A DNA stretch of 64,000 nt from Halobacteriaceae archaeon (GCA_042216675.1 JBDGTS010000003.1:13227-77226); one strand, 5' to 3'; positions 28,448-60,578 are shown, counted from the first letter of the stretch. Numbers and translations are program-made. The notes: generated from the letters alone by a model not told the origin.

Positions 28448-28525
28448 ACGCCACCTCCGGCCACCGGCGGCATTAAACTGGCTCTTAGCCGCCGCGCTTA
28501 GGTACGTCCCCACCGACAGGCCGGT

Positions 28526-32314: not shown

Positions 32315-32400
32315 GTCTCCGCCGTACCGCCGCGGCGCACTTGGCCGTTGTGTCGCAGCCGTCTGACAAGAGTTTAGTCGCCCCTCTCCGCAGGCCCGCT

Positions 32401-35336: not shown

Positions 35337-35376
35337 GCCCGGTCCGTCGGCCGCCGTCCGGAAAACGTTTCTGCAG

Positions 35377-36117
35377 TTACAGGTCCGCGAGGAAGTCCGC
35401 GCCCGTCTGGATGGACTCGGCGGGGTTCTCGGGGTCGTCGTGTTCGTAGATGAGCCATTCGGCGTCCACGTCGCGCGCGGCGTCGGCACAGGCCTGCATG
35501 TCCACGTCGCCCGCGCCGATTTCCGCGAACTCGCGTTCCTCGACGTGCATGTCCTTCATGTGCACGAGGTCTATCTGGTCGTCCAACTCGCGGATGAGCG
35601 CCGCGGGGTCGTCGCCGCCGACCAGCGCCCACCCCACGTCGAGTTCGATTTGGGCCGCCGTCTCGTCGATGAAGCGGTCGAAGGCGGTGTGGTCGCCGAG
35701 GTCCTCGAACTCGAAGTCGTGGTTGTGGTAGTGGCAAGTCCAGTCCGCGGCCGCGAGGTCGTCGGCCACCTCGTCCACCAGCGCCGCGAACGTGTCCACG
35801 TTCTGCGCGGAGGCGAAGTGGTCGTCGCTAACGTGAGGGATGACCGCGCCCGAACAGCCGATTTCGTCGCGGTAGGCCGCCACCACGTCGTCGAGGTCGT
35901 CCTCCAGTTCGTCCATGCCGACGTGGGGCGGCACCGGGTCGAGGCCCGTCTCCGCCAGTTTGTCCGCGACGGCACCGGCGCCAGCGTCCTCGATGGCGCC
36001 GAGGCCGCCCGAAATCTGGACGCCGTCGTAGCCCGCGTCGGCAACACGGTCGATGGTGTCGAGGAGAGGTTCGTCGAGCGCTCGGACGCTGTACAGATTG
36101 ATGGCAGTCTTGACCAT
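35377..36117 (-). CDS. Sugar phosphate isomerase/epimerase family (TIM barrel)
   Basis: AINLYSVR, HYHNHDFEF, ELDVGW, VHMKD, IYEHD. Confidence 0.9.
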   Translation of the reverse strand: MVKTAINLYSVRALDEPLLDTIDRVADAGYDGVQISGGLGAIEDAGAGAVADKLAETGLDPVPPHVGMDELEDDLDDVVAAYRDEIGCSGAVIPHVSDDHFASAQNVDTFAALVDEVADDLAAADWTCHYHNHDFEFEDLGDHTAFDRFIDETAAQIELDVGWALVGGDDPAALIRELDDQIDLVHMKDMHVEEREFAEIGAGDVDMQACADAARDVDAEWLIYEHDDPENPAESIQTGADFLADL

Positions 36118-36201: not shown

Positions 36202-37338
36202 ATGCAGGTCACAGACGTCGAAGCAATCCCGCTCGTCCACGAACTGCCCGAGGGGCGCACGCTCGGCAGTTCCCGCGGCCAGACCGGGGAGCGATTCACG
36301 ACGCTGGTCCGACTCGAAACCGACGACGGCACCGTGGGCTGGGGGGAGGCCTTCGCCCCCGCGCGCACCGTGGCGACGCTCGTCGAGGAGGTGTTCGCGG
36401 ACCGCGTGCTGGGTCTCGACCCCCACGACGCGGCGTCCTTCGTCGAGGAGTCCTACACTACCGGCTACCACTTCGGGCGCGCCTCGTTCGTCCGGTGTGC
36501 CGTCTCCGGCATCGACGTGGCGCTACACGACATCCTCGGTAAGGCGACCGGTCAGCCGATTCACAAACTGCTCGGCGGCGGGGCCGTCGACTCGCTCACG
36601 CCATACGCCTCGACTGGCTACGTGAGTTCGTGGGACTGGAGCGTCGCGGAACAGGTGGGCACCGCCGCCGAGGAGGGCTTCACCGCCGCGAAGATCAAAA
36701 TCGGCACCGGCATCGAGGAGGACGTGCAGCGAGTGCGCGATGCTCGCGAGGCCCTCGGCGAGGACGCGACGCTGATGGTGGACTACAACGGCAACTACCG
36801 CCCGAAGCAGGCGCTCCAGTCCGTCGAGGCCATCGAACCCTACGACGTGGCGTGGATCGAGGAGCCGGTGCCCGCGGAGAACCTCTCGGGCTACCGCGAA
36901 CTCTCCCAGCAGGTGGACGTGCCACTCGCCGCGGGCGAGGCGCACTTCAGCCGCTTCGAGTTCCGGGACCTCGTCGAGGACCGCACCGTGGACGTCGTCC
37001 AGCCGAATCTGGGTCGCTGTGGCGGCTTCACCGAGGCGAAACTCATCGGGCAGATGGCGACGACGGAGAACGTCGCCGTCCGACCGCACGTCTGGAACTC
37101 CGGCGTCGGCGTCGCCGCCGCCGTCCAGTTCGCGGCGACGGTTCCCGACTACCCGCACAACACGAACGTCGTGGACCCGCTTCTCTTCGAGTTCGACCGC
37201 TCGGAGAACCCTCTCCGCCACGAGATTCTCGACGACCCCTTCGACCCGACGGGCGGGGACCTGCCGGTTCCCGACGACCCCGGCCTCGGCATCGAGATCG
37301 ACGAGGAGGCAGTCGAGCGGTACCGCGTCGACACCTGA
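36202..37338 (+). CDS. Enolase-superfamily (mandelate racemase/muconate lactonizing) acid-sugar dehydratase/epimerase
   Basis: VGWGE, SGIDVALHDILGK, KIKIG (KxK), VDYN, WIEEP, AGE, PGLGI. Confidence 0.9.
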   Translation: MQVTDVEAIPLVHELPEGRTLGSSRGQTGERFTTLVRLETDDGTVGWGEAFAPARTVATLVEEVFADRVLGLDPHDAASFVEESYTTGYHFGRASFVRCAVSGIDVALHDILGKATGQPIHKLLGGGAVDSLTPYASTGYVSSWDWSVAEQVGTAAEEGFTAAKIKIGTGIEEDVQRVRDAREALGEDATLMVDYNGNYRPKQALQSVEAIEPYDVAWIEEPVPAENLSGYRELSQQVDVPLAAGEAHFSRFEFRDLVEDRTVDVVQPNLGRCGGFTEAKLIGQMATTENVAVRPHVWNSGVGVAAAVQFAATVPDYPHNTNVVDPLLFEFDRSENPLRHEILDDPFDPTGGDLPVPDDPGLGIEIDEEAVERYRVDT

Positions 37339-37377: not shown

Positions 37378-38217
37378 ATGGACGTTCTCATGACGGGCGT
37401 GTACGGCCGCTGTGGTACCGCCATCATCGACCACCTCTACGAGGAGGAGGCCTACGACTGGACGCTGTACAACCGCTCGGACCGGCCCGACGACCACCCC
37501 TACGGCGGCTACGACACCGTCGTCGGCAACGTGACGGACGCGGACCTGCTGATGGACGCCACCGAGGGCCACGACGCGATGGTCCACCTCGCGGGCTACC
37601 CCTTCACCGACGGCGACTGGGACGACGTGCTGGAACCCAACTACATCGGGATGTACAACGCACTAGAGGCGGCCCGGCAGAACGAGGTGGAGTCGTTCGT
37701 CTTCGCCTCGACGAATCACGTCATGGGGATGTACGAGGTGGAGAACGCCCCGGACATCTACTTCCCCGACAGCGACGTCCTCATCGACCACACCGACCCG
37801 GTTCGGCCGGACTCCTTCTACGGCACCTCCAAGTCCTTCGGCGAGGACCTGCTGCGCTACTACGTCGAGAACTACGAGTACCCGAAGCAGGGGTACGCGC
37901 TCCGCATCTGCTCGGTCCGAATGCCCGAGTACGACCATCCCTACGGCGACGCCGAGTCGGGCGTCGACGACGGCGAGTTCGAGCGTGGGAGCGACGCGTA
38001 CGCCCAGCAAGTCGCCCGGATGAAGGCGATGTGGCAGTCCCGCCGGGACTTCGCGCATCAGGTCGAGTGCTGTCTCGACGACGACGACGTGGACTACGGC
38101 ATCTTCAACGGCGTCAGCGACAACCAGCGCCGCTGGTACAGCATCGAACACGCGCGCCGCCGCATCGGCTACGACCCACAGGACGACGGCGACGAGTGGG
38201 ACTCGCCGCCGGCCTGA
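37378..38217 (+). CDS. NAD-dependent epimerase/dehydratase-type extended SDR (sugar/uronate dehydrogenase-like)
   Basis: TGVYGRCGT, VHLAG, FASTNH, PDSFYGTSK (YxxxK), GVSDN, IGYDPQD. Confidence 0.85.
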   Translation: MDVLMTGVYGRCGTAIIDHLYEEEAYDWTLYNRSDRPDDHPYGGYDTVVGNVTDADLLMDATEGHDAMVHLAGYPFTDGDWDDVLEPNYIGMYNALEAARQNEVESFVFASTNHVMGMYEVENAPDIYFPDSDVLIDHTDPVRPDSFYGTSKSFGEDLLRYYVENYEYPKQGYALRICSVRMPEYDHPYGDAESGVDDGEFERGSDAYAQQVARMKAMWQSRRDFAHQVECCLDDDDVDYGIFNGVSDNQRRWYSIEHARRRIGYDPQDDGDEWDSPPA

Positions 38218-38259: not shown

Positions 38260-38637
38260 ATGAGCGACCACGGGACCCGCGTCGAGGACGGCACGCTCTA
38301 CGTCGATGACGGCGAAGGCGGATGGCTCGAAGTCGGCACCTTCGACGACATCTACGACGTCCTCGACGGCGAGACGATAGAAGTCGAGTACGAGGCGAAA
38401 GCCGCGGCGTTCGGATCGGCGTGGCTCGACGTCGACGACGACGACGTCCTCACCATCGACGTGCGCGAGACGGTGACGGACATGACGTATCCGCCCGCGT
38501 TCGTCGCGAAACTCGCCGAACGCTCCGTCGAGGGTCGCGGTATCCCCGAGCGAACGACGTTCTTCGCGGAGTCGATGGAGCGCGTCTGGCGCTCCCGCGG
38601 GTCGCTCCCTGACGACGAGAACCCGTTTCTCGCCTAG
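38260..38637 (+). CDS. Hypothetical protein
   Basis: Acidic 125-aa ORF with TTTATT-like element upstream. Confidence 0.7.
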   Translation: MSDHGTRVEDGTLYVDDGEGGWLEVGTFDDIYDVLDGETIEVEYEAKAAAFGSAWLDVDDDDVLTIDVRETVTDMTYPPAFVAKLAERSVEGRGIPERTTFFAESMERVWRSRGSLPDDENPFLA

Positions 38638-39707
38638 AGCGAGACGGCCGCTCCTTGCTCGTTCGACCGGTAGATGGCGTCTAACACCCGCTGGACCGCC
38701 AGTCCCTCCTCGACGGTGTTCGTCTCCGGCGCTTCGCCCGCGGCGACGGCGTCGAGGAAGGCCCTGTCTTCGGCGTCGTGGCCGCTCACGTCGCGGTGTC
38801 CCGTCAGTTCGCTGTCGACGTAGTGGTCCACGCCGGCCCCGTCGACGCCGCGGACGGTAATCTCGTCGCCGCCCACCTCACACTCGGCGCCCGCGTCCGT
38901 CCCGCGGAGCACCACGTCTTTGCTCGGCGTGCGGTTGCAGGCCCACGCGACTTCGAGCGACATCGTCGTGCCGTCCGCACACCGGAGGAACGCGCTCGCG
39001 GAGTCCTCTACCTCGAAGGCGCCGGTGCCGCCGGACCCGTGCCCGGACCAGCCCTCGGGGTCCACGTAGTCCTCGCGCCCGCCGAACTCGGAGCGAGTCG
39101 TCGCGGACACCTCCGTCACCTCGGGGAAGCCCGCGAGATAGAGCGCGAAGTCGACGAGGTGGACGCCGACGTCGACGACGGCACCGCCGCCGGCGAGGTC
39201 CGCGTCCGTGAACCACGAGCCGACGCCCGGCACGCCCCGCCGGCGGACGTACTCGCCCTCGACGTGGCTCACGTCGCCAAAGCGGCCGTCCTCACGGTAG
39301 GCGACGGCGAGGTCAGCGGCGGCGCTGAAGCGGTTGTGGAAGCCGACCATGCAGAACGCGTCGGACCGGCGGGCCGCGTCGGCGATTCGCTCGGCGGCGT
39401 CGAGGCTGTCGGCCAGCGGTTTCTCACAGAGGACGGCGACGTTTCGCTGGAGGGCCGCCACCGCGGCCTCCTCGTGAAACGCGTTCGGCGTCGTGACGAC
39501 GACGGCGTCCGGACCGACGTCTTCGAGCATCGCCGCCGTGTCGGCGAACGTCTCGGCCCCGAACTCCTCGGCGAAGTCGTCTCTGGCCCCCTCGTTCACG
39601 TCCACGCCGGCGACGACGCCGTGGCCGGCGCCCCTGACGTTGTTCGCGTGCGTGCGTCCCATGCCGCCACAGCCGACGACTGCGACGCGAAGCGGGTCGG
39701 ATGACAT
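38634..39707 (-). CDS. Gfo/Idh/MocA family oxidoreductase
   Basis: VVGCGGMG, TTPNAFH, LCEKPL, GFHNRF, RRRGVPG.GSWFT, GGGAVVDVGVH. Confidence 0.92.
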   Translation of the reverse strand: MSSDPLRVAVVGCGGMGRTHANNVRGAGHGVVAGVDVNEGARDDFAEEFGAETFADTAAMLEDVGPDAVVVTTPNAFHEEAAVAALQRNVAVLCEKPLADSLDAAERIADAARRSDAFCMVGFHNRFSAAADLAVAYREDGRFGDVSHVEGEYVRRRGVPGVGSWFTDADLAGGGAVVDVGVHLVDFALYLAGFPEVTEVSATTRSEFGGREDYVDPEGWSGHGSGGTGAFEVEDSASAFLRCADGTTMSLEVAWACNRTPSKDVVLRGTDAGAECEVGGDEITVRGVDGAGVDHYVDSELTGHRDVSGHDAEDRAFLDAVAAGEAPETNTVEEGLAVQRVLDAIYRSNEQGAAVSL

Positions 39708-39742
39708 GGGCAGACGGCGGGGCGCCGCGCCCAAAAGGGTAC

Positions 39743-40594
39743 CTACGGCTCCTCGACGACGGGGTTCGTCAGCGTGCCGATGCCCTCGATTTCCACGTCG
39801 ACTTCGTCGCCCGGTTCGAGAAGCTCCGGCGGTTCCATGAAGACGCCGACGCCGCCGGGGGTGCCCGTCGAAATCACGTCGCCGGGCCGGAGCGTCATCG
39901 CGTTGCTGATGTACTCGACGAGTTCGTACACGTCGAAGATGAACTGGTCGGTGTTGGAGTCCTGCTTCGTCTCGCCGTTGACGCGACAGGCCACGTCGAC
40001 GTTGTTCGGGTCGAAGTCGTCGCCGGCGACGAGGCGCGGCCCCATCGGCGCGAACGTGTCGTAGGACTTGCCGCGGAGGAACTGCTCGTCCTCGAACTGC
40101 GCGTCGCGGCCACTCACGTCGTTGATGGCGGTGTAGCCCGCGATGTAGTCGTCCGCCTCGTTGGCGCTGACGTTGTTCGCCGTCTCGCCGATGACGACGC
40201 CGAGTTCGACTTCGTAGTCCACCTGCTCGATGTTCTCGGGGTGGTAGATGGGGTCGGCGGGGTTCGTGACGGCCGTGGGCGCCTTGCCGAACAGGAGCGG
40301 TCGCTCGGGAATCTCCTCGTCCTGCTCTTCAGCGTGGTCACGGTAGTTCAGCCCGACGCAGACGATTTTGCCGGGTTCGGGCACCGGCGCGAGGTGACGC
40401 ACGTCGGTCTCAGGGACTGTGGAGAGGCCGCCCGTCTCGACGCGGCCGCGCACGTCGTCGCGGTAGCTCGGATTCGCGATGTCACCGTAGTCGGGTTCGC
40501 CCGCGGGAAGGTCCGACAGCGAGTAGACGTCGCCGTCCTCGACGACGCCCCACTGGGGGTTGCTTCCGGCGTGCGTGTAGCGGACAAATTGCAT
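39743..40594 (-). CDS. Fumarylacetoacetate hydrolase family protein
   Basis: KIVCVGLNYRDHAEE, DYEVEL, NDVSGRD, GKSYDTFAPMGP, STGTPGGVG. Confidence 0.92.
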   Translation of the reverse strand: MQFVRYTHAGSNPQWGVVEDGDVYSLSDLPAGEPDYGDIANPSYRDDVRGRVETGGLSTVPETDVRHLAPVPEPGKIVCVGLNYRDHAEEQDEEIPERPLLFGKAPTAVTNPADPIYHPENIEQVDYEVELGVVIGETANNVSANEADDYIAGYTAINDVSGRDAQFEDEQFLRGKSYDTFAPMGPRLVAGDDFDPNNVDVACRVNGETKQDSNTDQFIFDVYELVEYISNAMTLRPGDVISTGTPGGVGVFMEPPELLEPGDEVDVEIEGIGTLTNPVVEEP

Positions 40595-40635
40595 CACAGG
40601 ATTCCATCCGCGGCGCCGCCTTAAACCCAACTACT

Positions 40636-40952: not shown

Positions 40953-42008
40953 GTGACTCACCGAATCGCCATCGCCGGCATCGGCGCCGTGGCGGACCTC
41001 CACGCCGACTGCGTGGCCGAAATCGACGGCGCGGAGGTCGTCGCGGGGTCCTGTCGCACAGAGTCGAAGGGACGGGAGTTCGCCGAGGAACACGACGCGC
41101 GGTGGTTCCCGGAGACGGACCTCATGCTGGACGAGACGGACCCGGACGTGCTCATCGTCTGCACGCCCAGCGGTGCGCACCTCACGCCCACCGTCGAGGC
41201 GGCGGAGCGCGGGGTCCACGTCCTCTGTGAGAAGCCTCTCGAAATCACCACCGAGCGCGTGGACAAGATGATAGTGGCCGCCAACGAGGGCAACATCCGC
41301 CTCGGCGGCGTGTTCCAACAGCGCTTCGACCCGTCGGTTCAGCGGGTCCACGAAGCCGCCACCGAGGGTCGCTTCGGGGACCTCTCGGTCGGTGCGGCGT
41401 ACGTCCCGTGGTGGCGCGACGACGACTACTACCGCGACGCGTGGCAGGGCACCGAATCGCTGGACGGCGGCGGCGCGCTGATGAACCAGTCCATCCACGG
41501 CGTCGACGCCATCCAGTGGCTTGCGGGCGCGGCCGCCGGCGTCGACGAGGCGAACCCCGTCGAGGAGGTGGTCGCGTTCACGGACCGGCGCGCCCACGCC
41601 GACGACCTGATGGAAGTCGAGGACACCGCCGTCGCTTCCATCCGCTTCCGTGGGGGCGCCCTCGGTCAGATTCTCGCCGCCACCTCGATGTATCCGGGGT
41701 CGGACAAGCGCCTCCAACTCGCGGGCCGCGACGGCACCGTCGAGGTGCGCGACGACGAGATTTCGACGTGGGAGTTCCGCGACGCCGACGAAGGCGCCGC
41801 CGAGTCGGGCGGCGACGGCGGCGGCGGTGGCTCCGCGGACCCGATGAGCATCGGCGGCGGCAACCACCGGCGCAACATCGAGGCGTTCCTCGACGCAATC
41901 GAGTCCGGCGAGGAGTTCCTGCTGGACGCCCACGAGGCACGCAAGGCCGTGGAAATCGTCGAGGCCGTCTACGAGTCCGCAGAGACGGGTGAACCCGTCC
42001 GCCTCTAG
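40953..42008 (+). CDS. Gfo/Idh/MocA family oxidoreductase
   Basis: IAGIGAVA, CTPSGAH, LCEKPL, FQQRF, DGGGALMNQSIH. Confidence 0.92.
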   Translation: MTHRIAIAGIGAVADLHADCVAEIDGAEVVAGSCRTESKGREFAEEHDARWFPETDLMLDETDPDVLIVCTPSGAHLTPTVEAAERGVHVLCEKPLEITTERVDKMIVAANEGNIRLGGVFQQRFDPSVQRVHEAATEGRFGDLSVGAAYVPWWRDDDYYRDAWQGTESLDGGGALMNQSIHGVDAIQWLAGAAAGVDEANPVEEVVAFTDRRAHADDLMEVEDTAVASIRFRGGALGQILAATSMYPGSDKRLQLAGRDGTVEVRDDEISTWEFRDADEGAAESGGDGGGGGSADPMSIGGGNHRRNIEAFLDAIESGEEFLLDAHEARKAVEIVEAVYESAETGEPVRL

Positions 42009-42796
42009 CGCCGCGCCTCGCTGACGAACGTCGAGAACACGTCGGCGGGGTCGCCCTCGACGAAGCACTCCGCGGTGACGTAGCCGTCGTAGCCCGTCTC
42101 CGCGATGGCGTCGTAGATGCGGTCGTAGGCCAGTTCGCCCGTCCCGGGCGGGCCGCGACCCGGGTTGTCGGCGACGTGGACGTGGCCGATTGCGTCGACG
42201 TGTCGCCGGAAGCGCCGAATCACGTCGCCCTCGGTTATCTGCTGGTGGTACACGTCGAAGAGCAGTTTCACGTTCGGGCTGTCGACGGCCGCCACGAGTT
42301 CCGCGCCACGGTCCGTCGTCGTCAGGAAGTAGCCCGGGTGGTCGACGCGCGTGTTCAGCGGTTCGACGACGACGGTCACGCCCGCGTCCTCGGCGGCGGG
42401 CGCGGCGGCCCGGAGCGCGTCGACGAGGGCGTTCTGCTGGGTCGAGCGGTCGAGGGTGGGGTCGCGTTGGCCGACGGTGGTCACCACCTGTCGTCCGCCG
42501 AACGACGCCGCGGCCTCGATGGAGCGTTCGAGGTCCCGAACCGCCTGTTCGTGGCTCTCCGGGTCGACGAGGCTCGGCGCGTCCGGGTCCGAGATGTTCG
42601 ACCCGGCGCCGGCCGCGAGGGTGCCGAACGCCTCGACGCCGTGTTCGGCCGCCGAGTCGGCGACGGCGTCGAGGTCAGCGTCTTCCCAGTTCCAGAACTC
42701 GAAGCCGTCCGCGCCCGTCGCGGCGACGTGTTCGGCCGCTTCAGCCGGCGTGCAGTCGAACGCGCCCGACGGTGCCGTGAGGCCTACGTCGTACAC
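42005..42796 (-). CDS. Hydroxypyruvate isomerase family TIM-barrel protein
   Basis: [41 protein letters not shown]. Confidence 0.88.
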
Positions 42797-42897
42797 TACC
42801 GCTCCCCTCCGTCTCGGTGCATGGCGGTTGCTCCGACGGACGGCGCTTGAAACTTCCCCTCCGCCAACGCTTTACCGCCGCCACCTGCACGGCCCCT

Positions 42898-43611
42898 ATG
42901 GCACGCGTCACCGTGTGGAACGAGTACCGACACGAGCGAGAGGACGAAGAGGTGGCCGAGGCCTACCCCGACGGCATCCACGCCGCCATCGCGGAGGGCC
43001 TCGCCGACCGGGGCCACGAGACGCGGACGGCGACGCTGGACGAACCGGACCACGGCCTCACCGAGGCCGTCCTCGACGAGACGGACGTGCTGACGTGGTG
43101 GGGCCACCGCGCCCACGGCGAGGTGAACGACCGCATCGTGGACCGGGTGCAGGAGCGCGTCCTCGACGGGATGGGCCTCGTCGTCCTCCACTCCGGGCAC
43201 TACTCGAAGCCGTTCCGACGCCTGATGGGCACCTCCTGTGACCTGAAGTGGCGCGAGGCCGACGAAACCGAGCGCCTGTGGGTCACGGCGCCCGGCCACC
43301 CCGTCGCCGACGGCCTCGGCGACTACCTCGAACTCCCCGAGACGGAGATGTACGGCGAGCACTTCGACGTGCCAGAACCCGAGACGACGGTGTTCACCTC
43401 GTGGTTCGAGGGCGGCGAGGTGTTCCGCTCGGGATGCGCCTACACCCGCGGCGAGGGCCGCGTCTTCTACTTCCGTCCGGGCCACGAGACGTATCCCCTC
43501 TACTACCGCGAGGACGTCCGGAACGTTCTGGACAACGCCGTGTCGTGGGCCGGCGCGAGCGGCGACGCCGACGTGACGTACGGCAACCACGACCCCATCG
43601 AGGACTGCTGA
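42898..43611 (+). CDS. ThuA (trehalose utilization) family protein
   Basis: [60 protein letters not shown]. Confidence 0.92.
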
Positions 43612-43650
43612 CGCCGGAACCCTTTTGCGGCCGCCCTTGGATTCCCGGGC

Positions 43651-44718
43651 ATGACGTACTCCGTCGCCGTCATCGGAACGGGCGAGGACCCGGAGAACAG
43701 TAGCCGCGAGGGGTTCGCGATGGCGTATCGGCACGCGGACGCCTACGAGGAACTAGACGACTGCGAACTAGTCGCTTGCGCCGACATCGTGCCCGAGAAC
43801 GCGGCGGCGTTCGCAGACGCGTACGGCGTCCCCGACGACCACGTGTTCGAGGACTACGAGGCGATGCTCGACGCCGTCGACGTGGACGTGGTGTCCGTCT
43901 GCGTGCCGCCAGCCGTCCACGCCGACATCGTCGTCGGGTGCGCGAAGGGCGGCGTCGACGCCATCCACTGCGAGAAGCCGATGGCGCACACGTGGGGCGG
44001 CGCACAGCGGATGGCGCAGGTCTGCTGGCGGCGCGACGTGCAACTCACGTTCAACCACCAGCGCCGCTTCGGGACGCCGTTCCGGCAAGCCAAGGCACTC
44101 CTCGACGACGGCGACATCGGGGACTTGGAGCGCGTGGAGTTCGAGGCGTCGAACATCTACGACTACGGCAGTCACTCCTTCGACCTCGCGAACTACTTCA
44201 ACGACGAGGGCGCCGTGGCGTGGGTCATCGCCGGCCTCGACTACCGGGAGGAGAACGTCTTCTTCGGCGCGCACAACGAGAATCAAGCCCTCGTCCAGTG
44301 GGAGTACGACAACGGCGTCTCCGGCCTCGCCGCGACCGGTCGCCGCACGTCCCTCGTCGGCGCGCATCACCGCCTCGTCGGCACCGACGGCGAAATCGAG
44401 GTCGGTGGCGGCGGCGAGACGGCCCTCCGCATCCGACGGGCCGGCGACGCCGAGTGGGAGGAACTCGACTGCGACGGCGAGGACGTCCACGGCCCGGGCT
44501 TCATCCAGCGAGCCGTCGCCGACGTGGTGGACGCCGTCGGCACCGACCGCGAACCCGAACTGTCCGCGCGCCACGCGCTCACCGCGACGGAGACGATCTT
44601 CGCCGCGTGGGAGTCCGCGCGCCGGCGGGGCCGCGTGGACCTGCCGCTGGAAGTCGAGGGCAACGCCTTGGAGGAGATGGTCGAGTCCGGCGCGCTCACG
44701 CCCGAACCGCGGGAGTAG
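43651..44718 (+). CDS. Gfo/Idh/MocA family oxidoreductase
   Basis: AVIGTG, VSVCVPP..H, HCEKPM, NHQRRF. Confidence 0.9.
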   Translation: MTYSVAVIGTGEDPENSSREGFAMAYRHADAYEELDDCELVACADIVPENAAAFADAYGVPDDHVFEDYEAMLDAVDVDVVSVCVPPAVHADIVVGCAKGGVDAIHCEKPMAHTWGGAQRMAQVCWRRDVQLTFNHQRRFGTPFRQAKALLDDGDIGDLERVEFEASNIYDYGSHSFDLANYFNDEGAVAWVIAGLDYREENVFFGAHNENQALVQWEYDNGVSGLAATGRRTSLVGAHHRLVGTDGEIEVGGGGETALRIRRAGDAEWEELDCDGEDVHGPGFIQRAVADVVDAVGTDREPELSARHALTATETIFAAWESARRRGRVDLPLEVEGNALEEMVESGALTPEPRE

Positions 44719-45027
44719 TCACTCCTCGTCTTCGTCCGCTTCGAGGTGCTCCTCGGCGAAGTCGGAGAGCCACTCCCACCCGTGTTCGTCGCCGATGCGT
44801 TCGATGAACTCGCCCAGCGATTCGTCCGGGAGGACCTCCCACTGGGCCTGCTTGGGGTTGCCGAGTTTCTCTGCCTCGTGGTCGACGTTGGCGACGTAGA
44901 TGTCGCTGGTGGACTTATCGACCATCACCATCTGCTGTTCGTGGCCGGTTACGCCGAGGTGCTCTTGGTCGCGGTGTTCGGGATCCGAGACGGGCCACTC
45001 GTCGTACGGCGGCTTACTACCGGGCAT
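44719..45027 (-). CDS. Hypothetical protein
   Basis: Acidic 102-aa ORF; TTTTA-like element upstream on minus strand. Confidence 0.7.
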   Translation of the reverse strand: MPGSKPPYDEWPVSDPEHRDQEHLGVTGHEQQMVMVDKSTSDIYVANVDHEAEKLGNPKQAQWEVLPDESLGEFIERIGDEHGWEWLSDFAEEHLEADEDEE

Positions 45028-45074
45028 GTGATAGAATAAGGCGCCGCGTGGCCTAAAAGCCGCCGGCCAAATTC

Positions 45075-45821
45075 TCAGAGGTCGACCTCGCTCCCGAACC
45101 ACGTGTCCGCGAGGCGGATGAACACCGACGCGAACCCGGTGTCCGCGCTCCAGATGGCCGTCTCGTCGCCCTCGCTCTGGTCTACGCTGACCAGCATCGC
45201 GTCGTCGTCGGCGACGAGGAGGCGCCCCGCCGCGCCGCTCCGGTCCTCGAACGAATCCGGAAGCCGGTGGACCGTCACGCCCGTCCCCGCGAAGCGGTCG
45301 GCCACGTCGTCGGCGCTGACCGCGACGACGGCGACGCCCTCCTCCGATGCGTCCGCGAGGGCTTCGGTGACCGACTCGCTGATGTGGTCGGCGTCGCCGC
45401 TGTACACGAGTCGACGCTCGGCCTCGTCGATGAGCGCCGTCGTTCGCGCGACGACGGCTTCCCGCCCTTCGACGGTCCAGACGGCCTCCTGTTCGCCGTC
45501 GGACTCGGCCTCGTGGCGCACGTCCGCCAGCGAATCGAAGGCGCGGTCCGCCTCCCGGTCGAACCGGTCGCGGAGTCGGTCGCGGGCCTCCTCCAGCGAC
45601 ACGGGCCGGTATCTGATGGGCGAGGCCTGCTGGATTTCGACCAGTCCGCGCTCCTCCAGTCGCTCGGCCGCGCCGTACACCTGTGACCGGGGCACGTCCG
45701 TCTCGTCGGCGACTTCACGCGCCGTCCCGGTGCCCAACCGCTGAAGGGCGACGAACACCGATGCCTCGTACTTCGAGAGACCGAGACGCTGGAGGGCGGT
45801 CACGGCGTCGGATTCGCTCAT
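45075..45821 (-). CDS. TrmB family transcriptional regulator
   Basis: LQRLGLSKYEASVFVAL, VPRSQVY, LEERGLV, P.RYRPV; start overlaps RND stop. Confidence 0.9.
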   Translation of the reverse strand: MSESDAVTALQRLGLSKYEASVFVALQRLGTGTAREVADETDVPRSQVYGAAERLEERGLVEIQQASPIRYRPVSLEEARDRLRDRFDREADRAFDSLADVRHEAESDGEQEAVWTVEGREAVVARTTALIDEAERRLVYSGDADHISESVTEALADASEEGVAVVAVSADDVADRFAGTGVTVHRLPDSFEDRSGAAGRLLVADDDAMLVSVDQSEGDETAIWSADTGFASVFIRLADTWFGSEVDL

Positions 45822-48394
45822 TCGTTCGGTCCCCACTCCATCTCCTCGACGAACTCGTCTTGCTCGTCGTCTCCACCGAAGGCGTCGTCCGGCCCCATGT
45901 AGCGCGTCCAGTACATCAGGAGCGTCGGCAACACGAGGACGCTCGCGAGGAACGCGTAGACGATAGTGAGCCCCGTGATGATGCCGAACTGGCGAAGCGG
46001 CGGCAGGATGGCGAACGCGAGGACGCCGAAGCCACCGACCGTCGTCGCCGCCGACCCCAGCAGCGCCCCGCCGGTGCCGGTGACGGTGGTCCGCATCGCC
46101 GTCCACGCGTCGTCCTCTCGCTCGATTTCGTGGGCGTAGCGCTCGCTGATGTGGATGCTGTAGGCCACCCCCAGCCCGACGGTGAGACTCGTGATCATCC
46201 CCGTCAGGACGTTGAACGGGATGCCGAACAGCGCCATCGTCCCGAGAATCCACGCGACGCTGAACGCCACCGGGAGGAGCGTGATGAAGCCCAGCGTCGC
46301 GGACCCGTCGGTGATGCGGTAGGTCACCATCAGGAACGCGAACACCGCGACGAGCGTGATGAGCAGGCTCTGGACGACGGTCGAGAGCAGCGAGTCGCTC
46401 ACCATCTTGAACACGATGGGCTGACCCGTGGCCGTCACGGTGACGTCCGGGCCCTCGAGGTCGGCGGCGAGCGACCGCGTGACCGACGTGACCCGGTCGC
46501 TGCTGGCGGTGCCCTGCACCGAGACGACCATCCGCGCGGCTCGGTACTCCCCGCCCTCACGGTAGAGGACGCCCCGTGCCTGCTGTGGGGCGACGCTGTA
46601 CAGTTCGTCGTACAGCGCCCTCACGTTCCGGTCGGGCACCCTATCGCCGTTCGTGTCGGCGGCGGCGAGCGACCGCGCGAACGACTGGTTCTCGGCCGCG
46701 ACGCGCTGCATCGCCGTGAGCGGACTCCGCACGTCGGCTCGTCCGCTGGAGAGGACCACCACCACGTCGCTCAGACTCTCGCCGGCGGCGCGTTCGTGGA
46801 CTGCTGCCATCCGCTGAAGGACGGCGGGGTCCGCGACACCGCCGCCGCCGGCGCTCTCGACCAGTATCTGGGTCTGCCCCTGTGCGCCCTCCACGCGGAA
46901 GTTCTGGTAGACGTAGTTCAGCGAGTCCTTCGCGTGGTACTCGCCGGGCGCGAACGGTTCGGGGAGGCTCTCCATCCAGTCCGGCGGGTCGTCGGCGAGG
47001 AAGTCCTCCTGTGAGAAACTGGTGTCGACTTGCGTCGCACCGTACGCGCCGGCGCTCGTCAACACGAGCGTCAACAGGAGGACGATGACTGGGGCGCGTC
47101 GCGCGGCGGTTTCGCCGACGCCGAGCGCCTGACCGATGGCGCCGCCGCCGGTGCCGAAGGCCCGCATCTGCCGGTCGTAGCCCCGCGCTTCGAGGAAGCC
47201 GTCGAGACGCACCTTCATCGCCGGGACGAGTGCCCCGAAGATGACGAACGCCGCGACGATGCCGAACGCCGCGACGATGCCGAACTGGCGTATCGGGGGC
47301 ACGTCGGAGATGAGATTCGAGAGGAAGCCGATGACGGTCGTCGCCGTCACGAAGAACAGCGCCACCCCCACGCTGGCGAGGGCGACGTTCATGCTCTGGT
47401 GCACGCCCTCGGTCCGTGCGCGCTCCTCCCGGTGGCGCATGAAGACGTGGATGGCGTAGTCGATCGAGAGCCCGATCAACAACACTGGGATGGCGACGAA
47501 CAGTTGGTTGAACGCGTAGCCGGCCCAGCCCATGAAACCGAAGGTCCAGACCAACACCGCGCCGATGCCGAACAGGCCCAACAGGATGTCGAGCAGGTCC
47601 CGGTAGGCCACGACGAGGACGACGAGGACGAAGATGAGCGCCAGCGGTCCCACGATGAGGATGCTGTCGGCCATCGAACGGTTAATCTCGTCCGCGATGA
47701 TGCCGCTCCCGAACACCGCGCTCTCGGTGCCGAGCGTGTCGTGGACGATGGTCTGCATCGTGTTCTGGCTCTCGATGAGACGGTCGCTGGCCGATCCGCT
47801 CGCCGTCTGCTCGCTCATCGTCGTCTGTGTGACGATGATCATCGTCGCGTTCGCCGACGTCTCACCGGGCGTGTAACTGGTCGGCATCAACCCGAAGGCG
47901 GTGCTACTCCCGTTCGCACCGAGAAGTCCCTGTACCGTGGCGTCGATCCGGGACTGATTCATCGCCTGCACCGCCGCTATCTGCTGTTCGACCGTCGGCG
48001 ATTGTACCCCCCGCTGACGGAGAGCGGCCCGCGCGACGAGGTTCGCGACGCCAGTGGGCGGCGCCCCCGTCGTCAGCGTCGGTCCCACCGTCTCGTTCGT
48101 CTGGAAGCGCCGTATCGTCCGGAGTTGAGCGACTAGGCTCTCCTTGTCGAGAACGTTCTCACCCCTGACGATTATCTGGACCGTCGTTGTGTTCTCCGGT
48201 CCGGTCTGGAAGTGCTGCTCGATGTAGTCGAGTTTCTGTGCCTCCGTCGTCTCGGTCTGGAACTGGTCGAGCGAGGACGACTGCTCGACCTGTCCCATGC
48301 CGACGCCGAACACCACCGACAGCAACAGCACCACAGCGATGACGGCCGCGCTGTGTTCCGTCACGGTGCGCGCGATGCGGTCGACGATGCTCAC
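45818..48394 (-). CDS. RND/MMPL family transporter
   Basis: Two repeats of TM bundle plus large external loop; IGLSIDYAIH and GLGVAYSIH motifs. Confidence 0.9.
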   Translation of the reverse strand: MSIVDRIARTVTEHSAAVIAVVLLLSVVFGVGMGQVEQSSSLDQFQTETTEAQKLDYIEQHFQTGPENTTTVQIIVRGENVLDKESLVAQLRTIRRFQTNETVGPTLTTGAPPTGVANLVARAALRQRGVQSPTVEQQIAAVQAMNQSRIDATVQGLLGANGSSTAFGLMPTSYTPGETSANATMIIVTQTTMSEQTASGSASDRLIESQNTMQTIVHDTLGTESAVFGSGIIADEINRSMADSILIVGPLALIFVLVVLVVAYRDLLDILLGLFGIGAVLVWTFGFMGWAGYAFNQLFVAIPVLLIGLSIDYAIHVFMRHREERARTEGVHQSMNVALASVGVALFFVTATTVIGFLSNLISDVPPIRQFGIVAAFGIVAAFVIFGALVPAMKVRLDGFLEARGYDRQMRAFGTGGGAIGQALGVGETAARRAPVIVLLLTLVLTSAGAYGATQVDTSFSQEDFLADDPPDWMESLPEPFAPGEYHAKDSLNYVYQNFRVEGAQGQTQILVESAGGGGVADPAVLQRMAAVHERAAGESLSDVVVVLSSGRADVRSPLTAMQRVAAENQSFARSLAAADTNGDRVPDRNVRALYDELYSVAPQQARGVLYREGGEYRAARMVVSVQGTASSDRVTSVTRSLAADLEGPDVTVTATGQPIVFKMVSDSLLSTVVQSLLITLVAVFAFLMVTYRITDGSATLGFITLLPVAFSVAWILGTMALFGIPFNVLTGMITSLTVGLGVAYSIHISERYAHEIEREDDAWTAMRTTVTGTGGALLGSAATTVGGFGVLAFAILPPLRQFGIITGLTIVYAFLASVLVLPTLLMYWTRYMGPDDAFGGDDEQDEFVEEMEWGPNE

Positions 48395-48479
48395 GCCTCT
48401 GCCCTCCGTCCGACAGCGCCAGTCATCTGTTGTTGTGCGCCTACTCACAGCCCCCAGTTAAGCGCACCGGTCGCGGAAC

Positions 48480-49571
48480 TTACAGTCCGTCGTCCCGCGC
48501 CGCCGCCAGTAACTCCTGTACGGCGACGGCCTCGTTCGCCTCGCCGCTCTCGATGGCCGCTTCGACGAGCGCCATCGACTGGAGGTTGTCCCGGACGTTC
48601 GTCGGCATCTCGGGGCCGCCGTCGAGCCACTCCACGAACTGTTCGACGAGCCAGACGTTGCCCCACTTCTCCTGCTCGTCGAGGGGAATCAGGTCGCCGT
48701 CCGCGAACTCGGTGTGGTCGCCGACGCCTTCCCCGTCCTCGTCGTAGGGGAACGCCCGAATCTCGCCGCCCGAGAGAATCAGCGTCGCGTCGCGGCACTC
48801 GGCGCGGACGTACTCCTCTTCCCAGCCGTTGAGGCCGACGGCGTTCGTCTTCGCGCCCTCGTAGGTGGCTTCGACGCCGTTCGCCATCGTCATCGTCACG
48901 AGCGCGTTCGCGCCGGCGCCGTAGTCGCCCCAGTCGGGCGTCCAGTGCTGGCTGTAGAGTCGCTCGCACGGCGCGTCGGCCACGTCGGCGAGGATGTCGA
49001 GGTGGTGGACCCCGCCCTCCACGAGGAGCGCGTGGTCCATCTCGTGTCTGAACGACGCGCCCCACGACCCGTAGGAGCGGGCGTTGCAGGTGAACCGGCA
49101 GACGAGGTAGTCGAGGGGGCCGTAGTCGCCGGCCCGCACGAGGCGACGGAGCGTCGTCACGTCTCGTCGGAAGCGGTGTGTCATCGTGACGCCCATCTTC
49201 AGGCCTGCCTCGCGCACCGTCTCGGCGATGCGCACCGAGGCGGCCAGCGTGTCGGCGATTGGCTTCTCCGAGAGGACGTGGAGGCCGTTCTCGACGGCCG
49301 CGTCCACGACGGCCTCGTGGAACTCCGGCGGGATGACGACGGTGGCGAAGTCCGCGTCAGTCTCCGCGAACGCCGTCTCGTAGTCGGTGTACAGTTGGTC
49401 GTCGTCGAGGCCCAGTCCCTCGCGGGCGTTCTCGTGAGCGGCCTCGTCCACGTCCACGGCGGCGACGGGTTCGACGAGGCCGTCGTCGACGTTCGGCGGA
49501 AGCATGTCACGACACCACCGGGCGCCCTGCCCGCCGGTGCCGACCTGCACGAACCGGTACGGGTTCGACAT
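48480..49571 (-). CDS. Gfo/Idh/MocA family oxidoreductase
   Basis: QVGTGGQG, VIPPEFH, LSEKPIAD, EGGVHHLD. Confidence 0.9.
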   Translation of the reverse strand: MSNPYRFVQVGTGGQGARWCRDMLPPNVDDGLVEPVAAVDVDEAAHENAREGLGLDDDQLYTDYETAFAETDADFATVVIPPEFHEAVVDAAVENGLHVLSEKPIADTLAASVRIAETVREAGLKMGVTMTHRFRRDVTTLRRLVRAGDYGPLDYLVCRFTCNARSYGSWGASFRHEMDHALLVEGGVHHLDILADVADAPCERLYSQHWTPDWGDYGAGANALVTMTMANGVEATYEGAKTNAVGLNGWEEEYVRAECRDATLILSGGEIRAFPYDEDGEGVGDHTEFADGDLIPLDEQEKWGNVWLVEQFVEWLDGGPEMPTNVRDNLQSMALVEAAIESGEANEAVAVQELLAAARDDGL

Positions 49572-49646
49572 GGCCGCGGCGACGCGCCGCCGTGGGAAAC
49601 CGCTTACGACACCGGGTTATAAGGGCCGGCGGCCGAAGCCCCGGGC

Positions 49647-50321
49647 ATGGCAGACCTCCGCGCCCTCGTCATCGGCGAGACGACGTTCGGCTTCCACGAC
49701 TTCGACGACGCCCGCCCCCACCTCCGGGCCGCGCTCGAACGGGCGAACGTCGACCCGACGCTCACGACGGACCGCGACGAACTCCGAGACCTCGCGGGCT
49801 ACGACGTGGTGGTGGACTACCTGACGGACAGCGACCTCACGGACGCCCAACGCGACGGCCTCCTCACCTTCGTCGGCGACGGCGGCGGCTACGCTGGGGT
49901 CCACTGCGCCTCGGACCTCACCAGCGTCGCCGGCCCCGACGGCGAACTCGAACACGTCGAGTCGCCGTTCCCCGGCCTGCGGGCGATGCTCGGCGGCCAC
50001 TTCCTCGGCCACCCCGAACAGCAGGATATCGACGTCGACGTCACGGACACCGGCCACCCCATCACCGCCGGCGTGCCCGACTTCACCGTCTACGACGAAC
50101 CCTACGACCTCGACGTCGACGACGACGTGACCGTCCTCGCGCGGATGGACCATCCCGAGTCCGGCGACGTGCCCGTCGCGTGGGCCAAGCGCTACGGCCG
50201 GGGCCGCGTCACCTACTGCTCGCTGGGCCACACCGAGGACGCCCTGACAGACGACGTCGTGGCCGCTCTCGTCGGCCGGGGCGCACGGTGGGCCGCCGGC
50301 GCCCTCGCGGACCCCCGGTGA
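49647..50321 (+). CDS. ThuA-like domain protein
   Basis: GGGYAGVHCASD, LGGHFLGHP, HPITAG, DEPY, PVAW...GRGRVTYCSLGH. Confidence 0.85.
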   Translation: MADLRALVIGETTFGFHDFDDARPHLRAALERANVDPTLTTDRDELRDLAGYDVVVDYLTDSDLTDAQRDGLLTFVGDGGGYAGVHCASDLTSVAGPDGELEHVESPFPGLRAMLGGHFLGHPEQQDIDVDVTDTGHPITAGVPDFTVYDEPYDLDVDDDVTVLARMDHPESGDVPVAWAKRYGRGRVTYCSLGHTEDALTDDVVAALVGRGARWAAGALADPR

Positions 50322-50355: not shown

Positions 50356-50613
50356 ATGACAGACATCGCGGACACGTGGTACTGGGACCACCGCACCGAC
50401 ACCGCGCTCTACCCCTGCAACACGGACGGCGACACCGTGGAGTTCGTCACCGTGCGCCACCGCGACGCCGTCGCGGACGCCATCGAGGCGGGGGCGCTCG
50501 AACCCCTCGGCGAGGGCACCCCGGACGGCGACCTCGCGGGCACCCTCGACTTCATCGACTCGTTCCGCCTGCTCGACGACGACGCGCTCAGCCGATACGT
50601 GGAGGGCGAGTGA
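50356..50613 (+). CDS. Hypothetical protein
   Basis: Acidic 85 aa; stop overlaps sulfatase start (TGATG). Confidence 0.7.
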   Translation: MTDIADTWYWDHRTDTALYPCNTDGDTVEFVTVRHRDAVADAIEAGALEPLGEGTPDGDLAGTLDFIDSFRLLDDDALSRYVEGE

Positions 50614-51923
50614 TGAGCGACCGACCGAACGTCCTCGTCGTCCTCACCGACCAGCAGCGCTGGGACACCGTGGGTGCCTACGGCAACCCGATGGACCTCA
50701 CGCCGAACCTCGACGCGGCGGCGGAACGCGGCACCCGCGTCGAGCAGGCAATCACGCCCCAACCGGTGTGCGGGCCGGCCCGCGCCTGTCTCCAGACGGG
50801 CCGTCACGGCACCGAACACGGCGTGTTCACGAACGGGCGCGTTCCCGACTTCGAGACCGAGGCGCTCCTCGCGGAGCAGTTCGCGGACGCCGGCTACGAC
50901 ACGGGCTACGTCGGCAAGTGGCACCTCGCGAACGCGCGTCTCGACCCAGTGTCCGCCGACAAGCGCGCCGGCTACGACTTCTGGCGCGCCGCGGGCGCCC
51001 TCGAGTGGACCTCTCACCCCTACGAGGGCACCCTCTACGACGAGGACGACGACCCCGTGGAGTTCGACGGCTACCGCGTCGACGCCGTCACCGACCACGC
51101 CGAGGAGTTCATCCGGCAGGACCGCGACGACCCGTTTTTCTGCATTCTCTCCATCCTCGAACCGCACCACCAGAACGACATGGACACGTACGTCGCGCCG
51201 GACGGCTACGCCCATCGCTACCGCGACCCGTGGGTGCCCGAGGACCTGCAGGGCCGACCCGGCGACTGGTACGAGGAACTGCCGGACTACTACGGCATCT
51301 GCCGGCGCATCGACGAGTGCTACGGACGCCTCCAGCGCGTCTTGGAGGAGGAGGGCATCGCCGACGACACCATCGTCGTGTTCACGTCCGACCACGGCTC
51401 GCACTTCAAGACCCGCAACCCCGAGTACAAGCGGAGTTGCCACGAGGCGTCGGTGCGGGTCCCCCTCGTCCTCGACGGGCCGGGCTTCGAGGGCGGCAAC
51501 GTCGTCGAGGACCCGGTGAGCCTCCTCGACCTGCCGCCGACGCTTCTGGACGCCGCGGACATCGACCCGCCGGCGTCGATGACGGGTGACCCGCTCGGTC
51601 CGGTCGTCGCGGGCGACTCGGAGGGCCGGGACGCGGTGTTCGTCCAGATCAGCGAACACGAGGTCGGGCGCGCGATTCGCACCGACCGCTGGAAGTACGC
51701 CGTCTTCGACCCGGAGGCAGACCACGGGGACGACCCGGCGGGCGAGACGTACGTCGAGCGATACCTCTACGACCTCGATTCCGACCCTCACGAGCAAGTG
51801 AACCTCGTCGGGCGCCGCGACTACGCGGACGTGGCGGCTCGGCTCCGAACGCGGTTGCTCGACCGCATCGAGGCCGTCGAAGGTGAGCGGCCGACCGTCG
51901 AGGCCGCCGACTACTACGCCTGA
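50613..51923 (+). CDS. Sulfatase (Cys-type, cytoplasmic)
   Basis: PNVLVVLTDQQR, CGPARACLQTG (CxPxR), GKWHL, FTSDHG, LYDL..DP.E..NL. Confidence 0.92.
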   Translation: MSDRPNVLVVLTDQQRWDTVGAYGNPMDLTPNLDAAAERGTRVEQAITPQPVCGPARACLQTGRHGTEHGVFTNGRVPDFETEALLAEQFADAGYDTGYVGKWHLANARLDPVSADKRAGYDFWRAAGALEWTSHPYEGTLYDEDDDPVEFDGYRVDAVTDHAEEFIRQDRDDPFFCILSILEPHHQNDMDTYVAPDGYAHRYRDPWVPEDLQGRPGDWYEELPDYYGICRRIDECYGRLQRVLEEEGIADDTIVVFTSDHGSHFKTRNPEYKRSCHEASVRVPLVLDGPGFEGGNVVEDPVSLLDLPPTLLDAADIDPPASMTGDPLGPVVAGDSEGRDAVFVQISEHEVGRAIRTDRWKYAVFDPEADHGDDPAGETYVERYLYDLDSDPHEQVNLVGRRDYADVAARLRTRLLDRIEAVEGERPTVEAADYYA

Positions 51924-60501: not shown

Positions 60502-60578
60502 GGCATCCGGTAGGGCTTCTCGCGGCGATAAGGGTTGTGCAAGCGAACGTTTATGTCGTGATTGGGCGAGAAGCCGTC

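Follow-up and report, generated by a model that had tools for sequence, protein, structure and literature searches.

Gene Content and Analysis of the Island

The DNA analyzed here (the window) is a stretch of 64,000 nucleotides from contig C2 (positions 13227-77226) of a Halobacteriaceae archaeon, with a G+C content of 65-73%; the source assembly comprises 2.15 Mb in 58 contigs, is 80.45% complete and has Halobacteria as its relatives. About 30 kb of the window form a haloarchaeal island for sugar catabolism, which encodes ThuA proteins, oxidoreductases of the Gfo/Idh/MocA family (hereafter Gfo) and xylose-isomerase-like TIM barrels. Judged from homology and gene linkage, these genes have roughly even chances of representing a cytoplasmic version of the bacterial route in which glycosides are cleaved by oxidation, elimination, hydration and reduction. 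Genes were chosen with a filter on third-position G+C (GC3), which calls approximately 2070 open reading frames (ORFs) in the whole genome, followed by Pfam and NCBIfam scans; proteins are designated below by their first coordinate in the window.

Six Gfo proteins and three TIM barrels are encoded between 26 and 50 kb. A first-pass annotation of the sequence had grouped some of them into two modules, the first consisting of Gfo 40953, TIM 42005, ThuA-1 and Gfo 43651, and the second of Gfo 48480, ThuA-2, a small ORF and a sulfatase, with the TIM barrels 33664 and 35377 as possible partners. Apart from the small ORF (50356-50613), which has no Pfam match, lies in a 288-base spacer, overlaps the sulfatase start and is probably not a gene, the named genes are all confirmed by Pfam and by their translations. 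This includes both additional TIM barrels (PF01261) and the direct succession of ThuA-1 and Gfo 43651.

An AtOGE-like TIM Barrel as Candidate Lyase

TIM 35377 matches PDB entry 8BVK at E = 3.4e-23 (HMMER, 85.8 bits), in an alignment that covers residues 57-244 of 246. This structure is that of AtOGE from Agrobacterium tumefaciens, an Mn-dependent O-glycoside beta-eliminase which, according to its report, converts 3-keto-glucosides to the aglycone and 2-hydroxy-3-keto-glucal, binds its metal through His132, Asp163, His189 and Glu233, and relies on His134 as the essential base (PMC10628242). In the HMMER alignment, H131, D160, H186 and E225 of TIM 35377 fall on the four metal ligands, H133 on the catalytic His134 and E158 on Glu161. 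None of the six positions varies among 22 TIM 35377-like proteins encoded at bacterial and archaeal loci linked to ThuA (22/22), nor in the set of 30 formed by the window protein and its 29 best haloarchaeal orthologues (30/30). Because the AtOGE match is accompanied by retention of all Mn ligands and of the catalytic histidine, TIM 35377 is preferred as the lyase over TIM 42005, and it is the best lyase candidate of the island; it lies outside the interval 40953-50321, on which the first-pass annotation had centered. The AtOGE-like gene occurs in 136 genomes (48 genera) of a survey sample of 300 Halobacteria genomes from 81 genera, and it adjoins ThuA-Gfo in operons of Bacillales and in compact clusters of two other haloarchaeal genera, G084 and G217.

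The TIM barrel of module 1, TIM 42005, is of another type. It is divergent from ThuA-1 across a spacer of 101 bases and matches TIGR03234 with 165 bits, under the cut-off of 353; the models it matches include those of hydroxypyruvate isomerase and 2-oxo-tetronate isomerase, both below their cut-offs, and of ketose epimerase. Its PDB matches are 3ngf and then 6wn6, a "3-keto-D-glucoside 4-epimerase" that is presumably YcjR. TIM 42005 was rejected as the lyase, given its resemblance to hydroxypyruvate isomerases and to the 3-keto-glucoside epimerase and the better fit of TIM 35377. The earlier suggestion that a lyase is to be sought among the named TIM barrels is supported for TIM 35377 but not for TIM 42005, which looks like the epimerase/isomerase type. 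In the same way, the broader proposal of glycoside cleavage without hydrolases gains an AtOGE homologue and several Gfo proteins in the island, and loses the barrel of module 1 as a lyase.

For the third barrel, TIM 33664, the only PDB match is a weak one, to AsbF (E = 1e-5), and many of its haloarchaeal homologues are named merely "sugar phosphate isomerase/epimerase"; a profile comparison with TIM 35377 revealed no kinship beyond the fold. Between these two genes, approximately 870 bases (34510-35376) contain no ORF that passes the GC3 filter. An ORF on the minus strand (34500-35489, 329 aa) has no Pfam match, and the region may represent non-coding DNA or the remains of a gene.

The first-pass annotation had also remarked that no DUF1080 hydratase is visible. 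This agrees with a genome-wide search for PF06439, as it had advised, which came back empty for this assembly (80.45% complete) while giving matches in the control genomes; DUF1080 was dropped as the hydratase on this ground.

ThuA Conservation and Its Pairing with Gfo

The genome contains three ThuA and 13 Gfo matches, and every one of the three ThuA genes has a Gfo gene as its immediate neighbor, the third pair being located on contig C4. The Haloferax volcanii genome, taken as a control, likewise gave a PF06283 match. Since a random gene would be expected to have an adjoining Gfo about 1.3% of the time, the arrangement exceeds chance. ThuA-1 is 62% identical to the copy on contig C4 and 25% identical to ThuA-2, so that the window carries two subfamilies. 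ThuA-1 shows 63-75% identity across Halobacteria, Bacillales, Chloroflexi and Deinococcales; for the best 80 of 526 confirmed relatives, taken from one-genome-per-species contigs and mostly from Bacillales, the range is 63-71%. A profile built from 65 relatives matches PDB entry 1T0B ("ThuA-like protein") over its whole length with 436 bits. About 70 positions are invariant, including several His, Glu and Arg residues and one Cys, and these look like the residues of an enzyme.

In the best 80 ThuA-1 loci, a Gfo gene is found within 200 bases in 50, within 1.5 kb in 57 and within 8 kb in 60, the other 20 having no Gfo, and a TIM barrel lies within 3 kb in 39. The usual Bacillales operon reads [TIM]-ThuA-Gfo-Gfo-TIM; in Neobacillus it is flanked by an AraC regulator and an enzyme of glycoside hydrolase (GH) family 13. 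The first Gfo of this operon matches DgpA over its full length (148 bits), and the TIM barrel upstream belongs to the TIM 35377 type. With ThuA added, the operon thus has the pattern of two Gfo and two TIM barrels known from the levoglucosan pathway, the P2B11 cluster and A. tumefaciens.

Among the 300 Halobacteria, ThuA-1 is present in 186 (52 of 81 genera) and ThuA-2 in 35. The context of haloarchaeal ThuA-1 was surveyed in 20 kb per locus, with 40 genera represented by one genome each, using a listed match per genus whose content played no part in the choice. A Gfo gene lies within 2 kb of ThuA-1 in 16 of these genera and a TIM barrel within 5 kb in seven. The Gfo 38634 type is the commonest Gfo next to ThuA-1 in other haloarchaea: its orthologues (46-56% identity) lie within 2 kb, divergently transcribed, in 12 of the 40 genera, and in the tree it groups close to the Gfo that stands second in the bacterial operons.

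Features of the Gfo Proteins

The best PDB matches of Gfo 40953 are 3q2k and 3q2i (about 130 bits), which we take to be WlbA-type UDP-sugar 3-dehydrogenases, followed by DgpA1 and the P2B11 glucuronide-3-dehydrogenase (8tdi) at about 70 bits. For Gfo 43651 the best solved relatives are DgpA1 and DgpA, and for Gfo 48480 DgpA, in both cases over the Rossmann domain only (50-64 bits). These matches lean toward C3 chemistry. On the levoglucosan-dehydrogenase, BT_2158 and BT_2159 models, the three proteins reach 28-68 bits with cut-offs of 650-750; they are superfamily members only, their regiospecificity being unreadable from sequence.

Orthologues of Gfo 40953 (58-65% identity) stand beside ThuA-1 in G126, G084 and G217, and the Gfo paired with the third ThuA on contig C4 is 36% identical to it. 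Orthologues of Gfo 43651 (56-64%) are found near ThuA-1 in Halosimplex and G217, and its nearest paralogue, by BLAST and in the tree, is Gfo 27353. Orthologues of Gfo 48480 are present in 34 of the 300 Halobacteria.

Linkage, Co-occurrence and Sulfatases in Other Genomes

The best evidence for one functional set, including sulfatases, is provided by two compact clusters in G084 and G217, which unite orthologues of genes that are scattered in the window. The G084 cluster contains an aldo/keto reductase (AKR; 73% identical to AKR 22156), a formylglycine-generating enzyme, ThuA-1, two Gfo (one 59% identical to Gfo 40953), a TIM 33664-like barrel (43%) and a TIM 35377-like barrel (53%), and continues with a further TIM barrel, a further Gfo, a small acidic protein of the 38260 type (40%) and ThuA-2. 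The G217 cluster comprises a TIM barrel, a Gfo 43651-like protein, a second TIM barrel, a Gfo, ThuA-1, ThuA-2 and two sulfatases, and extends to a Gfo 40953-like protein (65%), another Gfo 43651-like protein and a TIM 33664-like barrel (60%).

The AtOGE-like protein and ThuA-1 also tend to occur together. Across the 300 Halobacteria, 124 genomes have both, 12 the AtOGE-like protein only, 62 ThuA-1 only and 102 neither, corresponding to an odds ratio of 17; the xylose-dehydrogenase controls gave 4.4 and 3.8, and the value is 13.7 among xylose-dehydrogenase-positive genomes, shared ancestry being ignored in all of these ratios.

In the genome as a whole, sulfatases are encoded by about nine genes and a formylglycine-generating enzyme by one (contig C6, 21477-22322). 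A second adjacency of a sulfatase and a TIM barrel is observed on contig C3 (58863-61185). On contig C6, outside the window, a fourth module of the keto-sugar type (L228, 839-10304) consists of a sulfatase, an AKR, a TIM barrel of 331 aa and a Gfo of 371 aa. This Gfo gives a full-length match to the levoglucosan dehydrogenase model (329.8 bits, cut-off 650), and a TIM-Gfo pair of the same type, with a Gfo scoring 351.8 bits on that model, is also found near ThuA-1 in G193.

Remaining Genes of the Island

The features of the island are collected in Table 1. The AKR is a peripheral candidate reductase. Gfo 26240 is the only window Gfo that passes the NF041392 cut-off, the other five scoring 30-76 bits; it is a bona fide D-xylose 1-dehydrogenase, acting on C1 of the free sugar, and stands outside keto-glycoside chemistry. 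The ORF in which Gfo 27353 is embedded (27353-29752, minus strand) overlaps a pyridine-nucleotide disulfide oxidoreductase on the opposite strand (28526-29941, plus strand), and its upstream 440 codons are probably not translated.

The upstream part of the window further encodes, according to Pfam, two enolase-type sugar-acid dehydratases and a rhamnose mutarotase. Orthologues of FAA 32341 (57-62% identity) occur beside ThuA-1, Gfo and TIM genes in loci L197, L207, L208 and L028, and FAA 39743 resembles 2,4-didehydro-3-deoxy-L-rhamnonate hydrolase (NF053535, 211.7 bits, under the cut-off of 500). The short-chain dehydrogenase/reductase (SDR) 37378 resembles Azf (NCBIfam, 192.6 bits, under the cut-off of 400). 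Homologues of the small acidic protein 38260, at 40% identity, stand beside Gfo/ThuA-2 in G084 (L207, 16544-16903; L112, 1023-1382). The interval separating the two ThuA modules is occupied by a TrmB regulator and an MMPL transporter, the latter matching TIGR00921 with 232.6 bits, under the cut-off, and also sterol-sensing-domain models. The true start of sulfatase 50610 is the ATG at 50610 (MSDRPNVLVV...); the protein carries a CGPAR motif and has no signal peptide.

Table 1. Features of the sugar-catabolic island in window coordinates (Pfam gathering cut-off of PF06283, ThuA: 33.4 bits)
Feature	Coordinates	Strand	Evidence and remarks
Aldo/keto reductase (AKR), peripheral candidate reductase	22156..23160	-	PF00248, 199.9 bits
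D-xylose 1-dehydrogenase Gfo6	26240..27310	-	NCBIfam NF041392, 568.9 bits, cut-off 350
Gfo/Idh/MocA paralogue	27353..28441	-	Pfam; Gfo domains are the C-terminal 360 residues of ORF 27353-29752
FAA-hydrolase family protein	32341..33264	+	PF01557
TIM barrel, haloarchaeal subfamily; candidate hydratase or isomerase	33664..34509	+	PF01261, 104.5 bits
AtOGE-like TIM barrel; candidate Mn-dependent 3-keto-O-glycoside beta-eliminase	35377..36117	-	PDB 8BVK match
Sugar-acid dehydratase of the enolase superfamily, divergent from TIM 35377	36202..37338 (start approximate)	+	MR_MLE_C, 225.7 bits
SDR/epimerase-family dehydrogenase	37378..38217	+	PF01370
Small, very acidic protein, 125 aa	38260..38637	+	No Pfam match
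Gfo/Idh/MocA	38634..39734	-	Pfam
FAA-hydrolase family	39743..40630	-	PF01557, 242.2 bits
Gfo/Idh/MocA, module 1	40953..42008	+	Pfam; GTG start, Rossmann N-terminus
TIM barrel, module 1	42005..42796	-	PF01261, 148.5 bits
ThuA-1, 1T0B type	42898..43611	+	PF06283, 120.7 bits; ATG at 42898 checked
Gfo/Idh/MocA	43651..44718	+	Pfam; 39 bases 3' of ThuA-1
TrmB-family sugar-sensing regulator	45075..45794 (start approximate)	-	PF01978, 73.1 bits; C-terminal 240 residues of a long ORF
MMPL/RND (HAE3-like) membrane transporter	45818..48448	-	PF03176, 136.8 bits
Gfo/Idh/MocA, module 2	48480..49571	-	Pfam; divergent from ThuA-2
ThuA-2	49647..50321	+	PF06283, 132.1 bits
Cys-type sulfatase, cytoplasmic	50610..51923	+	PF00884, 184.9 bits
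Second sulfatase	60537..61904	+	PF00884, 132.6 bits

A Putative Cytoplasmic Route of Glycoside Cleavage

The homologies and the gene linkages described above are direct observations, and every catalytic step of the route is inferred from them. In the first step, a Gfo protein with NAD would oxidize the C3 hydroxyl of an imported glycoside, which may be anionic (uronic or sulfated) in view of the sulfatases nearby. TIM 35377, with Mn2+ and His133, would then remove H2 and release the aglycone or the leaving sugar, generating a 2-hydroxy-3-keto-glycal. This intermediate would be hydrated or isomerized by a second TIM barrel, either 33664 or 42005, and the resulting 3-keto sugar would be reduced by a second Gfo or by the AKR. 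The free sugar would finally enter the adjoining oxidative sugar-acid pathway, represented by the Gfo6 dehydrogenase, the enolase-type dehydratases and the FAA-family enzymes. The part of ThuA, as in rhizobial ThuAB, would be that of a conserved accessory, either to the dehydrogenase step or to the processing of the keto-sugar product.

A first alternative, which is considered rather unlikely, is that the genes make or interconvert 3-keto sugars or keto-glycosides while the glycosidic bond stays uncut. This could take the form of a ThuAB-like formation of 3-keto-disaccharides, of C3/C4 epimerization as in the glucoside/guloside system of E. coli, or of reactions on inositols or anhydro-sugars. 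The isomerase and epimerase matches of TIM 42005, including 6wn6, are consistent with it, this barrel being the one beside ThuA-1, and ThuAB is described as forming 3-keto-disaccharides only (PMC8121099). An inositol-type chemistry is further suggested by the best NCBIfam match of Gfo 40953, inositol 2-dehydrogenase (138 bits, under the cut-off), and by weak IolE matches of the TIM barrels; against this, the Pfam scans revealed no iol pathway genes in the window. More generally, an uncut glycosidic bond is difficult to reconcile with the retention of all AtOGE-type catalytic residues in TIM 35377 and with the recurrent set of two Gfo and two TIM barrels, a pattern tied to cleavage in three characterized systems.

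Several findings weigh against the cleavage route. The nearest Gfo gene in the window is 2.5 kb away from the AtOGE-like gene, whose partner there is a sugar-acid dehydratase gene. At the 29 best haloarchaeal orthologue loci of TIM 35377, surveyed over 1.5 kb on either side, a Gfo is nearby in four and a ThuA in one; a second TIM barrel is present in four, an MR_MLE dehydratase in four and UxuA in two, and many orthologues reside among ribosomal, RIO-kinase, Toprim or symporter genes. Half of the surveyed haloarchaeal ThuA-1 loci (20/40) lack both Gfo and TIM-barrel genes over a distance of 10 kb, and their neighbors are unrelated. The neighbors of ThuA-2 vary over 29 loci (Gfo in about 11, MR_MLE in eight, ThuA-1 in three, a sulfatase in one) and also include GH67, GH115, GH4, the carbohydrate-binding module CBM9 and altronate dehydratase, so that these neighborhoods fit uronate or xylan catabolism equally well as keto-glycoside chemistry. 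Although its genes are real, module 2 was discarded as a conserved unit: the orthologues of Gfo 48480 are not adjacent to ThuA-2 in 11 of the 11 loci fetched, the sulfatase is a neighbor at the single ThuA-2 locus just counted, and only in G095 do the coordinates listed place the Gfo 48480 orthologue and ThuA-2 close together, about 2.3 kb apart. None of the four Gfo proteins assigned to the route reaches any NCBIfam equivalog cut-off, no sugar importer is encoded inside 30-52 kb of the window, the co-occurrence figures carry no correction for phylogeny, and the published four-enzyme systems work without ThuA.

The organism is, moreover, not free of hydrolases. The third ThuA-Gfo pair (contig C4, L004, 2591-19560) lies inside a cluster of the pectin/rhamnogalacturonan type that encodes GH42, a pectate lyase of polysaccharide lyase family 2 (PL2), GH28, MR_MLE, GH78 and GH2. 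The glycan-degrading capacity of contig C4 is unusual for a 2.15-Mb haloarchaeal assembly.

Many of these observations would suit a second alternative, judged unlikely, in which the island is a loose set of enzymes from oxidative (non-phosphorylative) pathways of free pentoses, deoxyhexoses and uronates. The sugars would be freed by ordinary glycosidases and sulfatases, the Gfo proteins would oxidize C1, the TIM barrels and ThuA would serve sugar-acid or keto-deoxy-acid steps, and the likeness to glycoside-cleaving systems would reflect shared folds only. Such a set is consistent with the xylose dehydrogenase equivalog Gfo 26240, with the two enolase-type dehydratases, two FAA-family enzymes, rhamnose mutarotase and SDR of the window, with the MR_MLE and UxuA neighbors of TIM 35377, with the MR_MLE, GH67, GH115 and altronate dehydratase genes beside ThuA-2, with the hydrolases and lyase around the third ThuA-Gfo pair and with the isolated ThuA-1 loci. 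It leaves unexplained the tight bacterial TIM-ThuA-Gfo-Gfo-TIM operons, the relatives of the levoglucosan-dehydrogenase model beside TIM barrels, and a co-occurrence of ThuA and the AtOGE-like protein that exceeds the xylose-dehydrogenase control.

To our knowledge, the oxidation and beta-elimination route of glycoside cleavage has been elucidated in bacteria only, since about 2020. In line with the first-pass annotation, which knew of no archaeal account of the route, none was found in the literature searched, a coverage that largely excluded subscription journals and supplements. If the proposed cleavage route is correct, it would extend this chemistry to the Archaea and to a cytoplasmic, high-salt setting, and it would be common in Halobacteria, as indicated by the frequencies of the AtOGE-like protein and ThuA-1 given above (136/300 and 186/300). 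ThuA, a solved structure without known chemistry, would gain a place beside a defined reaction sequence. The sulfatase link suggests substrates that are poorly handled by ordinary glycosidases, for example sulfated or uronic glycosides.

As to the role of ThuA, the protein is very highly conserved while its partners diverge, and in a Pseudomonas iminosugar cluster it stands beside a flavin-type sugar oxidoreductase, where its role was deduced from annotation alone (PMC11494336). Together these two features suggest that ThuA deals with something invariant, either a keto-sugar product or a cofactor; on its biochemistry, the literature searched contained annotation-level statements only. A bolder extension, which we regard as decidedly doubtful, is that 1T0B-type ThuA is a near-universal fifth component of cytoplasmic keto-glycoside pathways, acting on the keto-sugar product or on NADH, and that the haloarchaeal route, with its cytoplasmic sulfatases and perhaps the MMPL transporter, dismantles sulfated glycans or sulfated glycolipid head groups. 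As such a component, ThuA might hydrate or detoxify either 2-hydroxy-3-keto-glycal or 3-keto-sugar, or re-oxidize NADH tightly bound to Gfo. This would explain why ThuA retains 63-75% identity between Bacillales and Halobacteria, compared with 25-35% for its Gfo and TIM-barrel partners.

Comparison with Characterized Systems

Among the closest known systems is the A. tumefaciens operon GlycDH/AtOGE/AtHYD/Gfo (Bitter et al. 2023, PMC10628242), with which the island shares an AtOGE homologue bearing the same Mn ligands and catalytic histidine, further TIM barrels, Gfo reductase candidates and the lack of DUF1080. The two differ in the first oxidant, which is a flavoenzyme in A. tumefaciens, whereas only NAD-type Gfo candidates are found here. 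They also differ in arrangement and setting, the window genes being spread over about 10 kb in an archaeal, cytoplasmic context with ThuA and sulfatases alongside.

The levoglucosan pathway LgdA/LgdB1/LgdB2/LgdC (Kuritani et al. 2020, PMC7676230) likewise employs two Gfo proteins and two "sugar phosphate isomerase" TIM barrels, without DUF1080, for oxidation, elimination, hydration and reduction. The contig C6 Gfo is the member of this genome that approaches it, although its score, like the 43-110 bits of the window's own Gfo proteins, is far under the cut-off of 650. A comparable organization is described for the P2B11 glucuronide cluster, in which two Gfo genes are flanked by two TIM barrels, again without DUF1080, and whose enzymes act on glycosides negatively charged at C6, including the 6-sulfate (Nasseri et al., preprint 10.1101/2024.03.25.586180); its oxidase (8tdi) is the one matched by Gfo 40953 at 70 bits. 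In the comparisons with solved structures, weaker matches were 8tct, 8tcs and 8tcd. The AL1-4 and BT2156-2159 enzymes treated in the same source are periplasmic and use DUF1080, unlike the proposed route. For P2B11, AL1-4 and BT2156-2159 alike, ThuA is not reported, and their sequence similarity to the window proteins is low.

Rhizobial ThuAB, linked to the formation of 3-keto-disaccharides (cited in PMC8121099 and PMC4765114), resembles the island in gene adjacency, a ThuA gene standing beside a Gfo-family gene; it differs in that ThuA is represented by two subfamilies in the window, with no ABC importer next to them. With the DgpA/DgpBC C-glycoside system of gut bacteria (PDB 7xr9, 9m3d), the connection lies in DgpA, which among solved structures is the best match to Gfo 43651, to Gfo 48480 and to the Gfo next to ThuA in Bacillales, whereas the window matches are confined to the Rossmann domain and no heterodimeric C-glycoside lyase was seen. 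ThuA-1, for its part, belongs to a subfamily with a solved structure, 1T0B, whose entry name states no function and which it resembles over the whole length. Seen against these systems, the proposed route is an archaeal, cytoplasmic, ThuA-associated, sulfatase-linked and DUF1080-free variant of a known bacterial pathway type.

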